This document shows positions 21,076 through 30,371 of a DNA stretch of 64,000 bases, one piece after another. A program made the translations under genes and the position numbers. Positions within the stretch are counted from its first letter, which is position 1; every line of letters begins with the position of its first letter. This DNA comes from Candidatus Uhrbacteria bacterium (lineage in GTDB: Bacteria > Patescibacteriota > Patescibacteriia > UBA9934). Below the pieces are notes generated by a model that was given only the letters and a program-made list of their open reading frames with translations, was not told where the DNA came from and ran no database searches. Location of the stretch: positions 8,008-72,007 of the forward strand of contig CALRGY010000001.1 of the NCBI GenBank assembly GCA_943358395.1. The letters are read 5' to 3'.

Positions 21076-21116
21076 TTGACAGTGCAAAATTAGCACTCTA
21101 TAATAGAGACTGCTAA
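21076..21116 (+). promoter_or_regulatory. sigma70 promoter overlapped by CIRCE (HrcA operator)
   Basis: TTGACA(21076)-N17-TATAAT(21099); TTAGCACTC-N9-GACTGCTAA (21090-21116), one mismatch to CIRCE consensus, upstream of clpB. Confidence 0.88.
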
Positions 21117-21118
21117 TG

Positions 21119-21243
21119 TCGGACTTCCCCATTTTGCCCATTTTCGGCTTGCATCATCGGAAACTTCTTCAACGTACCAAGAAGTACGTCTCAGAAGATT
21201 TCCTCGACGCGCACCGAAACTGGTCGAAAATGAGAAAGTCCTA
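21119..21243 (-). mobile_element. HP125 copy 3 (reverse), in clpB 5' UTR
   Basis: TCGGACTTCC...CAACGTAC-caagaa-GTACGTCTC...AAAGTCCTA, 125 bp. Confidence 0.85.
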
Positions 21244-23893: not shown

Positions 23894-24576
23894 CCACTTC
23901 GGCAAAACACATCTTCCTCCTTGATAGCATCGCGATCCTGATCTTTGGTGGGTATTTCGCTTTTCTCTCTGTGAGTCTTGCAACGATGCATCTTCATCCC
24001 GTCACCACGCTCATCGCTGCCCTTCTAGGCTACGTTCTCGCCGACCTTATCTCTGGACTTGTCCACTTTCTTGGCGACACCTTTGGCAGCAAGAATACCC
24101 CCATTGTTGGCGCAGCGTTTATTGAACCGTTTCGCTATCATCACATTGATCCCGAAGACATCACCAAACACGGATTCGTTGAAACCAATGGGCATAATTG
24201 TCTGGTCTCGATTCCGATCCTGATGATCATGACGCATATTCTTCTGAAATACGTTGCCACATCTGCACTTGCTGGGTTTGCCCTTGCCACATCATATTTC
24301 CTTGTGCTCGGCGTATTCCTCACCAACCAATTCCACAAATGGGCACACACCCCAACGCCACCACGATTCATTCAGTTCCTTCAGCACCATCGCATTATTC
24401 TCTCCCCCAACCATCACCGCATCCACCACACCTCCCCCTTCACCCGCTATTTCTGCATCACCACCGGCTGGCTGAACAGCCTCCTCGACTCCCTCAACTT
24501 CTTCCCCCTCACCAAATCCCTCCTCCGCAAAATCCCCTTCATGTTGAAACCCGCGGAGGAGTACGAGGCACGGTAA
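23890..24576 (+). CDS. CarF/TMEM189-family lipid desaturase
   Basis: [45 protein letters not shown]. Confidence 0.85.
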
Positions 24577-24588
24577 CTTCAAAAATCT

Positions 24589-25296
24589 ATGTCTCTTGCA
24601 GAAGAAGCGATCCTCTTCGCAAAGCACAACAAAAAAGAAATCTCCCGCCGGCTGACGAGTCTGGAAGAATACCCACCCAGCGATTCACCCGTCACCATAT
24701 TCATGGCCGGTTCGCCAGGGGCAGGAAAAACAGAGTATTCAAAAAGTTTACTCGCCTACCTCATAAAAAACACAAGTGATCGACCTATTCGTATTGATAG
24801 CGACGAGCTTCGCGGGGAAATTCCCGGATACACAGGGGAAAATTCATCGGAAATGCAGGGGGCTGTCTCCATTCTCCTGAGCGAAATGTACGACCGTGCA
24901 TTAAAGAACCGACAAACCGCTATTATCGACGGGACGTTATCACATTACGGAAAGGCTAAAGAGAACATCGAACGGTCTCTCAAGCGCAATCGGCAAGTGC
25001 TTATTTTCTACATCTACCAGCATCCAGAAGTCGCATGGCAGTTTACCGTTGCACGAGAGCACATTGAGGGACGAAACATTCCAAAACGTGCGTTTATTGA
25101 AAAATTTCTCGGCTCAAAAGCAACCGTCAATCAGATTTATCGGGAATTCAGCGACCGCATAACGCTCTTCTTGGCAAGAAAAAACTTCCAAACGCACGCC
25201 ATTGAAACAGTAGAAATCGTGAGTCCTCAACATTCGGGATTGGACGCATATCTCCCGGAAACATATACTGAAGAGGAATTAGCAAAATTACTATGA
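24589..25296 (+). CDS. Zeta-toxin-family P-loop kinase
   Basis: FMAGSPGAGKTE, IDSDELR, IIDGTL, REHIEGRNIP. Confidence 0.85.
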   Translation: MSLAEEAILFAKHNKKEISRRLTSLEEYPPSDSPVTIFMAGSPGAGKTEYSKSLLAYLIKNTSDRPIRIDSDELRGEIPGYTGENSSEMQGAVSILLSEMYDRALKNRQTAIIDGTLSHYGKAKENIERSLKRNRQVLIFYIYQHPEVAWQFTVAREHIEGRNIPKRAFIEKFLGSKATVNQIYREFSDRITLFLARKNFQTHAIETVEIVSPQHSGLDAYLPETYTEEELAKLL

Positions 25297-25466
25297 AAAT
25301 CCTATACTTTTTGAAAAAGTCTCTCAAAAAGAATCGTGGAGCTGCCGATTTCTTTCTTCACACTTCAAAGAAAAAGAAGATCAAAATTTTGAATGAAATC
25401 GGTCAAGAAGCAAACACAGCTCAATGGGAGTTGGTCAAACAAAGCGAAGCTCTCAAGTCAGCATAA
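25293..25466 (+). CDS. 57-aa basic protein coupled to the zeta-like gene
   Basis: ATGA overlap; MKILYFLKKSLKKNRGAADFFLHTSKKKKIKILNEIGQEANTAQWELVKQSEALKSA*; followed by terminator; below ORF-track cutoff. Confidence 0.6.
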   Translation: MKILYFLKKSLKKNRGAADFFLHTSKKKKIKILNEIGQEANTAQWELVKQSEALKSA

Positions 25467-25470
25467 TCTC

Positions 25471-25499
25471 AAAAATCCCCAGGAAAACCTGGGGATTTT
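25471..25499 (+). terminator. Intrinsic terminator
   Basis: AAAATCCCCAGG-AAAA-CCTGGGGATTTT. Confidence 0.75.
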
Positions 25500-25557
25500 G
25501 TTATAGTCCAGAATTTTCTCTCAAAACCCATTTCTCCCACTTTTCCCCATACCCCAA

Positions 25558-25797
25558 TCGACAAAACCCCATTTTTATGCTAATATTAGCGGTTCCTCTA
25601 CCTGTACGGACACATTGTCCGTAGGCAAGAACATCACAAAAAACACTGGAGGAGCGGATGCCGCTCACCCTTTTCTGGCTCATTGCCAGTTTCTTCCTTG
25701 GGTGTTCGCAAGAACCCCAAACCATCGTGTACGTCATCGCGGGTGCCCCCCCCTTCTGCGGTTATTTCGCAGGAGGAAGGAGCATTTGCCGAGGACG
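25558..25797 (+). repeat. Promoter/leader module copy 1 (with C8 tract 25746-25753)
   Basis: TCGACA-N17-TAATAT with TG extension; direct repeat of 27226-27377. Confidence 0.85.
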
Positions 25798-27098
25798 CAC
25801 CGGTGGAAACTCTCACCGACGCCCCCGCTGCCTATGATGGCGGCAACGGAGACGCATGCGATCTCGACGGGATCGATCCCTATGATCCCGAAAAAGTCAT
25901 CGCTTACGAGATCGTGAATCTCACCGACGAGCAGATCGCAGAGCTCGAGAGCATTGGATACTCATGGTGGGATACCTATTCGCAAATCCCAGAAGCTACT
26001 GTCAATGTCGACATCAACATAACAGTGAGTGAATGCGAAACAGTTTCCTTCACCGATGTAAACCTCGAGATCGGGCGGGAAATGGGTTATGTCGCCCCCT
26101 CTGCCAGCGGAGAAACAAGCTGGCGAGTGGACTATAACGACAGTAATTCCGCTCAAAAAATCGGTGGGTACGACAACGCGAGATGGTGGGCAGAAATCTA
26201 CAGCGGTCCGGTAGCGGAACCGTTTCTGTACCAATACGCCATCAAGTACTTACCGGAAACGCGTGGTCGACGATCTGCGTGGATGACGCTCTCAACGAAT
26301 TATTGGCCTGCGAATTTCGCGGCTGCCTATAACGCGTTTGAACCGTACAGTGAAGACATGATGGATCGGGATTACGGGAAAAACGGGTGGATCTCCATGT
26401 ACGAAGGCGACCCCGCGTACATGACCTGCCAAGTCGGAACCTGCGACGACACGCGCCTCAATGCGTGTTTGACCAAAGTTTACGACATCGAAGCCCTGGA
26501 TGCATCCGATTCACTCGTCGCAGAAACCGGTGACTGCTTCGACTGGTCCAACATCGCAGCAACATACGCTTGGGAGGTCTACTTCAGCCACTGGGACGGA
26601 TTCATGAGTCCGCACAATGGCTACGTAGAAGAATTGGGAGATTCGGCTTCGCCGGACACATCTCGATTCAGCCTCCGAATCGCAGGCGTGGATCTGGTAA
26701 ACCCCAACTGGGTAAGTGTTGAGGAGGTCACGTTTTACTCGTGGTCGACTCTCTACCCACCCTGCTGGAAGGATCAGTCTGAAGGTGGTTGCAGAGCGAT
26801 GCTCGTCGCCGATCTGCAGATCCTAATCGAAGCAGGACGAAGCGGAAAGATGGCGAGTGACCTCGACAAGGTTGCTGCATCCCGCCAAGCCCTCGGGCTC
26901 TGGTGGGAAGGGGTCGACGAGGGCTGGTACAACGACGAACGGGACTGGCTCACCGCCAGACCCGATTACGTCGAAATGGCCCTCACCGATGCTCTCGACC
27001 CCTGCAACGACTGGACTGCCGCAGGGTACAACCCCTGGGACACCGGTCTTGCAGGAGAATGTGGGGACACCGGGTTCATCGATACCGGAAAACCGTAA
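25658..27098 (+). CDS. CotH-kinase-like lipoprotein, interrupted by a +1 frameshift at C8
   Basis: GGAGG + ATG 25658 gives lipoprotein signal MPLTLFWLIASFFLGC but stops at 25837; the long ORF is in the +1 frame; SMYEG and EVYFSHWDGF..HNGY resemble CotH motifs. Confidence 0.6.
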
Positions 27099-27127
27099 AA
27101 GGCTCAAAAAAAGCGAGGTAGAACAAC

Positions 27128-27170
27128 GAAGCCCCCGAGCTGCTATTACGCTGCAGCCCGGGGGTTTTCT
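27128..27170 (+). terminator. Terminator of cassette 1
   Basis: GAAGCCCCCGAGCTGC-loop-GCAGCCCGGGGGTTTT; homologous to 28111-28159. Confidence 0.75.
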
Positions 27171-27225
27171 ATTTCAACAACCCTTTCTCCAAACTCCCCC
27201 ATTTCTCTTTTCCACACCCCCCTCG

Positions 27226-27377
27226 TCGACAAAACCCCATTTTTATGCTAATATTAACGGTTCCTCTGCCTGTACGGATGTTCCGTAAACAGACATGAAG
27301 AACCCAACAATTCGTGTCCTCGCGTATGCCCCCCCCTTCTGCATTTCAGCATGAGGACGGAGCATTTGCCGAGGACG
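27226..27377 (+). repeat. Promoter/leader module copy 2 (with C8 tract 27329-27336)
   Basis: TCGACAAAACCCCATTTTTATGCTAATATT identical to copy 1; GCCCCCCCCTTCTGC...GGAGCATTTGCCGAGGACG shared. Confidence 0.85.
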
Positions 27378-27387
27378 TGGAGAAGTC

Positions 27388-28092
27388 ATGAAGATTTTGA
27401 TTTTTTTGTTTACGCTTCTGGTCGGTGCCTCCTGCACCAACAAGGGTGCCGTCGACCGCACCCCCGACACCGAAACCTTCGACACGGGGGTGGCAGCGTC
27501 TGCCACCCCCGACGACGATGGCGACGGCTACACCGACGACGAGGACTGTGACGACACCGACCCCGCCGTCAACCCGGGAGCCACCGAGATCTGCGACAAT
27601 GTCGACAACGATTGTAACAGCCTCATCGACGATGCCGATCCCGACCTCGATCTCAGTACCGGCACCACCTGGTACGCGGACACCGACCGTGATGGGTACG
27701 GCCAGGGCACCGACCGCCCCACAAGCACCACCACCGCCTGCGACCAACCCGGCGGCTATGTCGCCGACAACACCGACTGCTACGACAACGACCCAGGAAA
27801 TTTTCCCGGGGCTACGGAAGCTTGTGACGGCATCGACAATGACTGCGATGGGGTGGTGGACGAGGGTTTCACGTATTACTACGCCACCCTCGACGAGGAT
27901 GGCGATGGCTGGGGCGGCAACGCCGACGCCGCTTCCGGTTGCCCGGGAACAAAGCCCCCGGACTACTCGGAGAACGTCGGCGACTGCGACGACACCGACC
28001 CCACCGTCAACCCAGAGGCCACCGAGATCTGTAACAACATTGACGATGACTGCGACACCCTCATCGACGAGGAGGAGATCTGCGTGCCATAG
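27388..28092 (+). CDS. Lipoprotein with MopE-type putative metal-binding repeats
   Basis: Signal LLVGASC; three DCDD.DP.VNP.ATEIC..ID.DC...ID-type repeats; GC-rich codons. Confidence 0.85.
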   Translation: MKILIFLFTLLVGASCTNKGAVDRTPDTETFDTGVAASATPDDDGDGYTDDEDCDDTDPAVNPGATEICDNVDNDCNSLIDDADPDLDLSTGTTWYADTDRDGYGQGTDRPTSTTTACDQPGGYVADNTDCYDNDPGNFPGATEACDGIDNDCDGVVDEGFTYYYATLDEDGDGWGGNADAASGCPGTKPPDYSENVGDCDDTDPTVNPEATEICNNIDDDCDTLIDEEEICVP

Positions 28093-28110
28093 GAGGCGGT
28101 GCGCAGCAAA

Positions 28111-28159
28111 AACGAAACCCCCGAGCTGCAATACGGCAAGCTCGGGGGTCTTCAGTTTT
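28111..28159 (+). terminator. Terminator of cassette 2 (possibly bidirectional with ppa)
   Basis: GAAACCCCCGAGCT-loop-AGCTCGGGGGTCTTC. Confidence 0.75.
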
Positions 28160-28166
28160 ACGGACA

Positions 28167-28754
28167 TTAGTCTTTGATCTTGGGCAGAATCTCTTTTTGG
28201 TATCTCTCAATACACTCTTCGATCACATTCACTGCTTCGTCCGCGTCGTAGAAGCCGAGGACTTTGCAGGTGCCTGGCTTTTTCAGGTGTTTGTAGAATT
28301 CGAAGTAGTGTGCGGTTTCTTTTGCCCAGTGCTCGCCGAGGTCTGTATATGACGTGATGTGATCAGCGCGCTTGTCGTCGGAAAGCACGCAAATTACTTT
28401 GTCGTCGGTTTCTCCCCCGTCTTCAAATTTCATGATGCCGATGACGCGGACTTCCACGAGCGATCCTGGAATAAGTGGCTCGACAACATTCGCGACGAGA
28501 ATATCCAGCATGTCGTTATCCTGATCCCACGTTTGAGGGATTAAGCCGTACACCGTTGGATACGCTAACGAAGAATACCCCACGCGGTCGAGCTTCAAGT
28601 GACCCGTTTCCGTAATAAACTCGTATTTATTAATACTGCCAGCATTGATTTCCACCAATCCGTTCAACACACGCTTTTCCTTATCTGCCCATGGAGAGAG
28701 CAAGTGCAGCAAGTTCGGCATGAATTTGTGAATCGGCACATCAAGATTTGCCAT
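28167..28754 (-). CDS. ppa: Inorganic pyrophosphatase family I
   Basis: NKYE, LDRV, YGLIPQT..DNDMLD, DGGETDDK. Confidence 0.92.
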   Translation of the reverse strand: MANLDVPIHKFMPNLLHLLSPWADKEKRVLNGLVEINAGSINKYEFITETGHLKLDRVGYSSLAYPTVYGLIPQTWDQDNDMLDILVANVVEPLIPGSLVEVRVIGIMKFEDGGETDDKVICVLSDDKRADHITSYTDLGEHWAKETAHYFEFYKHLKKPGTCKVLGFYDADEAVNVIEECIERYQKEILPKIKD

Positions 28755-30239: not shown

Positions 30240-30364
30240 GAGGACTTTCTCATTTTAGGCTAGTTTCGATGAAGATCGAGGAAAATTCGTGAGACGTACT
30301 TCATGGTACGTTGAACGATTTTCCGATGATCTGAGTCGAAAATAGACAAAATGAGGAAGGACTA
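30240..30364 (+). mobile_element. HP125 copy 4
   Basis: GAGGACTTTCTC...GAGACGTAC-ttcatg-GTACGTTGAA...GAAGGACTA, 125 bp. Confidence 0.85.
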
Positions 30365-30371
30365 CATTTCT

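Follow-up and report, generated by a model that had tools for sequence, protein, structure and literature searches.

In a 64,000-nucleotide stretch of the genome of a Candidatus Uhrbacteria bacterium (assembly GCA_943358395.1, contig CALRGY010000001.1, positions 8,008 to 72,007), which we call the window, two neighbouring gene cassettes each carry a run of exactly eight cytosines (C8) within a predicted long hairpin. On the evidence of its reading frames and homologues, the first cassette is one lipoprotein gene that has been split by a frameshift after the signal peptide, and the annotated protein of this locus, P0001, which has a predicted CotH-kinase fold, is without its true N-terminus. 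The split gene, the in-frame homologues, the duplication that links the two cassettes, the intact gene body and the lack of detectable mismatch-repair genes are established; three further steps are inferred, namely that the C8 is where the frame breaks, that the break is reversible and that the C8 of cassette 2 plays no part in setting a frame. The explanation that we favour, tentatively and as quite possible, is that the tract of cassette 1 is a slipped-strand C7/C8 switch caught in its OFF state, with a second C8 that has no frame role. If so, slippage in a simple repeat, which host-associated bacteria are known to exploit, would vary a CotH-like kinase anchored at the surface of an uncultivated bacterium with a small genome. 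The weights that we attach in words to this and to the competing explanations are matters of judgement and were not computed. The features of cassette 1 are as follows.

25558..25586, + strand: predicted sigma-70-like promoter (TCGACA, 17 nucleotides, TAATAT with TG)
25590..25633, + strand: predicted first leader hairpin, common to both cassettes (core arms 25605-11 / 25617-23)
25626..25715, + strand: segment between direct repeats CAAGAAC (25626-32, 25709-15), containing the Shine-Dalgarno (SD) sequence, start codon and signal peptide; no cassette-2 counterpart in the alignment
25648..25837, + strand: SD GGAGG and 59-residue frame-0 open reading frame (ORF), comprising the lipoprotein signal and first mature residues; 5' end of the cassette-1 gene
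25722..25806, + strand: copy 1 of the long imperfect hairpin, predicted (z -4.3 and -4.65); its 5' arm contains the C8
25743..27098, + strand: +1-frame ORF P0001, 451 residues, annotated start GTG 25743; mature domain, predicted CotH-kinase fold, zero internal stops
25746..25753, + strand: C8 tract, where the frame break most probably lies; a tract of C7 or C10 would restore the frame
27132..27168, + strand: terminator-like GC-rich hairpin and T tail after cassette 1, visible in the sequence and not called by the consensus scan

All of the features, ORFs and translations that an earlier note, made from the sequence alone, had listed for the two cassettes were found to be present. The frame-0 ORF of cassette 1 begins at ATG 25658, downstream of GGAGG at 25648-52, has its lipobox cysteine at residue 16 and stops at TGA 25835-37, and the +1 frame extends from the vicinity of the tract to 27098. 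The +1 frame also has a start codon of its own immediately 5' of the tract, GTG 25743, which the earlier note overlooked; this codon lacks an SD sequence and is predicted to be fully paired. The proposal that cassette 1 is a single split gene is borne out by its homologues, of which a word-based search returned three and a search among cluster representatives six. Those with a complete N-terminus (P0002-P0004, P0006 and P0008) carry a hydrophobic signal and a cysteine in the same frame as the body, and the three homologous loci read as DNA (L022, L023 and L024; 29-39% identical) are likewise all in frame. Other homologues are 57-61% identical. The DNA of the closest homologues, P0002, P0003 and P0005, was not found in scans of GTDB, JGI or viral sequences, and the frame-0 ORF, queried in a weak search against longer proteins, gave no match. 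A crude scan of this genome for other split lipoprotein genes, which covered five lipoprotein-like starts, yielded cassette 1 as the only convincing case. A small GNRA-capped hairpin (GCAA loop) at 25701-25717 of the window lies over the lipobox cysteine codon and the second CAAGAAC repeat.

The 447 codons of the gene body are free of stops, and the W-D-G, N and D positions that do not vary within the family are preserved. The predicted structure of P0001 (predicted local distance difference test, pLDDT, 73) has as its top Foldseek matches 5jda and 5jd9, the CotH kinase of Bacillus cereus (E 1e-10, template modelling (TM) scores 0.57/0.69); a sequence search of the PDB gave nothing meaningful. 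Two aspartates of P0001, D285 and D317, are invariant in all nine aligned sequences and would correspond to D228 and D251, reported as catalytic in Bacillus subtilis CotH (PMC7821199). The mature domain thus modelled has a predicted CotH fold with putative catalytic aspartates, and its kinase activity is likewise putative. In the genus, the interval between clpB and ppa holds an in-frame CotH-like lipoprotein gene in two of the nine genomes fetched, and we therefore regard it as a variable slot for such genes.

How closely the frame break can be placed was assessed by scanning all possible junctions against homologous proteins. Against P0003, which has the closest N-terminus, the best junction is a plateau at residues 25-31 (25733-25753) that includes the C8 and does not single it out; four other proteins gave no clear optimum. 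The frame-0 motif QTIVY resembles QTVVY of P0003 (shuffle p 0.017), and the +1 segment after the tract, taken alone, matches P0003 weakly (p 0.48). Since this 912-kb genome (97.6% complete) has just six C8/G8 runs and none longer, the position of one of them inside the junction window is unlikely to be due to chance. The C8 of cassette 1 is a homopolymer of switching-competent length that lies early in the coding sequence of a gene for a surface protein and would set its frame, as is characteristic of a simple sequence repeat (SSR) contingency locus.

The two C8 tracts do sit in similar structures, as had been claimed, each forming part of the 5' arm in a long hairpin that is predicted by folding (-39.4 and -32.9 kcal/mol for copies 1 and 2; z -4.3 and -4.9) and that none of 200 shuffles equalled in stability in either copy. 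Folding energies of 297 windows drawn from the two GC-rich gene bodies average -21.8 kcal/mol (sd 6.2) and go down to -39.7 kcal/mol; by this measure the hairpins are strong but not unique. The folding energies of C7 and C8 forms lie 0.2 kcal/mol apart, and the idea that the register of the hairpin favours C8 was rejected on that account. An Rfam search over 24500-28500 returned 15 matches at E<=10, all below the gathering score, and no known cis-regulatory RNA for either hairpin. The 16S rRNA, which would carry the anti-SD sequence, is not part of the assembly. Other C8 runs were seen in 5' leaders, shortly upstream of an SD sequence and start codon, once in this genome (G000:C11:8313-8320) and in two relatives (L080 and L088).

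The earlier note treated the C8 element as a conserved module. It occurs twice in this genome, and judged by the alignment of the two copies it is a local duplication and not a case of conservation across species. A covariance model found it in none of 150 genomes, though this model was built from two sequences only and distant forms could escape it; an exact pattern was absent from 400 genomes of the class, and a scan of GTDB contigs gave nothing. Partial blastn matches of 17-22 nucleotides were found in two of 161 other genomes of the order, and 15 viral stretches with the short motif included none that scored (best E 0.62), the motif of the 3' arm being absent from viral contigs. Between the two copies, the resemblance reaches well beyond the C8 module, a point that the earlier note missed: the promoters are identical at 30 of 30 positions, and the cassettes also have in common an upstream pyrimidine tract (36 matches, 14 mismatches), both leader hairpins (the first and the one with the C8) and terminator-like hairpins that resemble each other. 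Within the hairpin region they differ by seven substitutions and seven indel events, six of which are not multiples of three. The indels fall in the loop and flanks and spare the inner stem, the boundaries having been chosen partly after the alignment had been seen, which hints that the structure has been kept. Because such frame-breaking indels are unlike the divergence of a coding frame, the similarity of the +1 peptides is better regarded as a by-product of DNA identity, and the claim that this peptide is itself conserved is not supported. Both copies go back to a single local duplication and so do not count as two separate lines of evidence. The simplest history that we envisage is one in which the 5' end of cassette 1 was duplicated, the start region was lost by deletion between the CAAGAAC repeats, and the remainder came to stand before a gene for a lipoprotein with MopE-type repeats. 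A tandem duplication of 83-85 nucleotides in the start region was considered as the cause of the frame offset and rejected (p 0.0025 with the seed repeat, 0.11 without). More generally, a second copy within one genome can mimic the conservation of a recoding signal even when it is a recent local duplication.

Similar sigma-70-like motifs, in the form GACAAAA...TGCTA, stand before lipoprotein-like and orphan genes across the order (L002-L020), often with structured leaders, and in relatives before further small genes as well. The features of cassette 2 are the following.

27226..27304, + strand: cassette-2 promoter, a duplicate that matches copy 1 at 30/30 positions, together with the first leader hairpin
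27295..27354, + strand: 19-residue leader ORF; no SD, AUG predicted mostly paired, translation doubtful
27311..27381, + strand: long imperfect hairpin, copy 2, predicted structure of the 5' untranslated region; C8 at 27329-36; base overlaps the MopE SD GGAG 27379-82
27326..27391, + strand: 21-residue +1-frame ORF with its own ATG 27326 directly before the tract; no SD; TGA 27389-91 overlaps the MopE ATG 27388
27388..28092, + strand: intact gene for a lipoprotein of 234 residues; MopE-type repeats (PF11617), signal peptide of its own
28118..28148, + strand: terminator-like hairpin after cassette 2, resembling the one after cassette 1 (41 matches, 7 mismatches)

For this second cassette it had been proposed that a +1 shift on the C8 couples translation of the leader to the MopE gene, and here the proposal finds no support. 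Neither the leader AUG (27295) nor the +1-frame AUG (27326) has an SD sequence, and both are predicted to be mostly paired, so that neither would offer the accessible initiation that coupling needs, and the MopE gene has its own ATG, with GGAG five bases before it, and its own lipoprotein signal. Folding shows no switch at MopE, because its SD sequence is predicted to be paired with or without the 5' arm, and any ribosome in that arm would open the hairpin without shifting. Four other MopE genes in the genome are without such a leader. Readthrough of the leader's UGA into MopE, which lies in the same frame, was also considered and set aside as unnecessary, MopE having its own SD and signal. 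The 21-residue +1-frame ORF is likely a relic of cassette-1 coding sequence, the C8 of cassette 2 is probably not a second frameshift switch, and the copy likely serves only as promoter and structured 5' leader of the MopE-repeat lipoprotein gene.

For cassette 1, the slipped-strand explanation supposes that the C-run would lengthen and shorten during replication, with C7 or C10 in frame (ON) and C8 or C9 out of frame (OFF), so that the cassette would act as a simple-repeat ON/OFF locus that happened to be sampled in its OFF state. No match to MutS_I, MutL or NucS was found in this 97.6% complete genome, and a match to MutS_I was found in only one of 68 genomes of the family; the missing matches make reversible switching at a high rate no more than plausible. 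In Campylobacter jejuni, which lacks canonical mutS and mutL, a G8 tract switches at 4.2e-4 per division (PMC3401435). The state of the gene body is also informative: in simulations of 6% neutral divergence, the 447-codon body stayed free of stops in 2.5% of runs, and in ~0.2% when indels were included, while the duplicated leaders have diverged at least as much as the 6% simulated. It follows that the gene has been under selection for most of the time since the duplication, and hence that either the tract was in frame for much of that time, by phase variation or before a recent loss, or the C8 was bypassed by recoding. Several observations weigh against a switch, nonetheless. The tract does not recur in the orthologous loci L022, L023 and L024, which have neither C-run nor hairpin. 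The 90% protein cluster of P0001 has a single member, and no in-frame form is on record. Genome-wide, C/G runs of 5, 6, 7, 8 and 9 or more number 998, 114, 12, 6 and 0, with no peak of the contingency type. The junction is resolved to ~20 nucleotides and not to a single base. Contigs of two sequencing runs from one study have C8 at both sites and no indel row, although contigs drop rare variants. Both copies have exactly C8 despite seven indels nearby, which free slippage explains only by chance. Lastly, the G8 tracts of C. jejuni mutate mainly by insertion (PMC3401435), a direction that would lead away from C7.

Some of these same observations would fit a recent pseudogene with a duplicated relic, in which a C7 tract gained one C once in the sampled lineage and so inactivated an accessory surface gene; the C8 of cassette 2 would then have arisen or persisted on its own account or through gene conversion. 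The homologous loci read as DNA are without C-run and hairpin at this place, the clpB-ppa slot is variable, neither the contigs of the two runs nor the protein cluster has yielded variant alleles, and long C/G runs show no excess in the genome beyond the six C8 runs, against ~1-2 extrapolated. Inactivation of this kind requires a second event, however, to account for equal tract lengths in two diverged copies, and a tract placed directly behind a surface protein's signal peptide is in keeping with contingency loci under selection. A bias of homopolymers towards the 5' ends of genes has been shown for A/T runs (PMC2831843). We consider a pseudogene doubtful, though a serious candidate. Fixed recoding, in which the C8 is a stable inherited state and some full-length lipoprotein is made by +1 ribosomal slippage (CCC-C/CCC-U) or by transcriptional loss of one C, the hairpin acting as a pause or stimulator and cassette 2 having merely inherited the element, would account for the body having stayed intact through substantial divergence while both copies share the C8 and the frame offset. 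It can also draw on the inner stem that escaped the seven indels of the loop and flanks, within boundaries drawn partly post hoc; on the run, which faces exactly eight nucleotides of the 3' arm in both copies; and on a weak SD-like GGGUG and a weak hairpin (-5.7 kcal/mol) ending just 5' of the tract, both in copy 1. Yet the out-of-frame state is kept in no relative that the covariance model or the pattern search covered (0/150 and 0/400), only in the paralogous copy of the same genome; the A-site codon (CCC or UUC) is neither a stop nor rare; tRNA-Pro GGG, CGG and UGG and TrmD are all present; and CCC-C occurs at 0.93 of its expected frequency, so that neither TrmD loss nor CCC-C avoidance, for which we looked, was found. 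Moreover, the tract is itself part of the 5' arm, and a ribosome decoding it would already have opened the stem; the 0.2 kcal/mol between C7 and C8 is slight; and folding predicts no small upstream hairpin for copy 2. That recoding supplies the protein is in our estimation unlikely, and equally so the stricter form in which a fixed, lineage-specific signal would have the surface CotH-like kinase made only through +1 slippage or C loss, its hairpin being reused by duplication as a leader controlling MopE translation.

The scheme of the earlier note, one selected +1 switch that works by fusion in cassette 1 and by translational coupling to the MopE start in cassette 2, appears very improbable to us. 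The +1 frame of copy 2 does end in an ATGA overlap with the MopE start, the base of the hairpin covers the MopE SD sequence, and several of the substitutions are at third codon positions when read in the +1 frame, in small numbers that are not significant allowing for three frames. Against this, besides the leader AUG 27295 without an SD sequence, the frame-breaking indels (6/7) and the four MopE genes without such a leader already described, ATG 27326 opens the +1 frame without any shift, and a stop overlap would be expected about one time in three given the ATG-A context. Nor is there much to be said for a sequencing or assembly error over a true C7, or for GTG 25743 as the real start of a signal-less kinase. 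Homopolymers are error-prone, the library type is not on record, and gene callers begin P0001 at that GTG; but a second assembly (Logan contigs of the two runs) spans both tracts without gaps and gives C8 in each, although the present assembly may itself derive from these runs and the reads are perhaps not independent, and the GTG is unprovided with an SD sequence, predicted to be fully paired and at odds with homologues that are lipoproteins. An assembly error at the C8 is unlikely, and taken together error and internal start have, we believe, a very small share of the probability. The earlier note had argued against an error from the identity of the two tracts; the gap-free second assembly likewise makes an error unlikely, and the two tracts, as products of one duplication, are not independent evidence.

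In 13 genomes of the genus, runs of C8 or longer were examined as a possible lineage-wide lipoprotein switch, and the idea was dropped when none of 19 loci proved to be a split lipoprotein gene. Seven of the 19 (L085, L091, L093, L094, L095, L101 and L106) have, where ORFs of ~340 residues begin, G runs that vary in length between G8 and G10. The ORFs resemble reverse transcriptases with a YADD motif, and we take them to be of the diversity-generating retroelement (DGR) type; these ORFs of genus relatives have no tblastn match in this genome. At another locus (L083; G012:C5 near 29374), a G9 run apparently splits an ORF resembling a periplasmic binding protein or ion channel into two frames, possibly a second homopolymer frameshift in the genus. 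In the window itself, a Zeta_toxin-family P-loop protein (PF06414, E 1.7e-36) is encoded at 24589-25296, between a desaturase gene and cassette 1, and is overlapped by a basic ORF of 57 residues at 25293-25466; this pair was not seen in the nine genus regions compared. Positions 21115-21242 and 30241-30368 belong to a family of ~125-nucleotide palindromic repeats that fold into one long hairpin (-45 kcal/mol) and have 100 blastn matches genome-wide at E<=1e-8, of which 77 span 100 nucleotides or more; in size they are presumably comparable to enterobacterial repetitive intergenic consensus (ERIC) sequences or miniature inverted-repeat transposable elements (MITEs). A practical consequence for annotation is that P0001 needs to be given its true N-terminus. 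In literature that did not extend to subscription papers, we found no report of homopolymer phase variation in Patescibacteria, of programmed ribosomal frameshifting in the Candidate Phyla Radiation (CPR) or of Uhrbacteria lipoproteins.

Comparison with known systems sets the locus in context. The stem-loop-dependent transcriptional slippage of the Roseiflexus IS630 element on T5C5 (PMC5009743) loosely resembles cassette 1 in that the loss of one C would restore the frame and, in copy 1, a hairpin is predicted in the nascent transcript directly upstream of the run; here, however, the C8 is preceded by G, the upstream hairpin is weak (-5.7 kcal/mol) and missing from the copy-2 prediction, and nothing is conserved across species. 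Frameshifting of the prfB or CCC_UGA type (PMC5009743) shares with copy 1 a P-site CCC that can re-pair in the +1 frame and a weak SD-like sequence upstream, but differs in its A-site codon, which here is neither stop nor rare, in the presence here of TrmD and three tRNA-Pro species, and in the want of conservation among the relatives here. With the CotH kinases (5jda, 5jd9; PF08757), P0001 has in common the matching fold and the two invariant aspartates, and distant relatives of P0001 match PF08757; it differs in being 13% identical, in having no Pfam match itself, in its lipoprotein anchor and in belonging to a bacterium with a small genome, and its activity is putative. The slipped-strand switch that we prefer has its counterparts among the contingency loci of other bacteria, which include the C/G runs in the 5' coding part of Neisseria pilC-type genes. 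From these it differs in that no length variation is shown, there is no G9/G10 peak, relatives do not keep the tract, and the tract lies inside a long hairpin and has been duplicated into a neighbouring leader. Cassette 1 works like a poly-C contingency locus and is a candidate member of that class, in which no length variation was seen and whose tract the orthologues do not keep. With the poly-G/poly-C loci of C. jejuni (PMC3401435) it shares a C/G run that lies early in the coding sequence for a surface protein and is one base away from the correct frame. Neither lineage has detectable mutS or mutL, and a length of eight falls within the switching range measured for cj1139.

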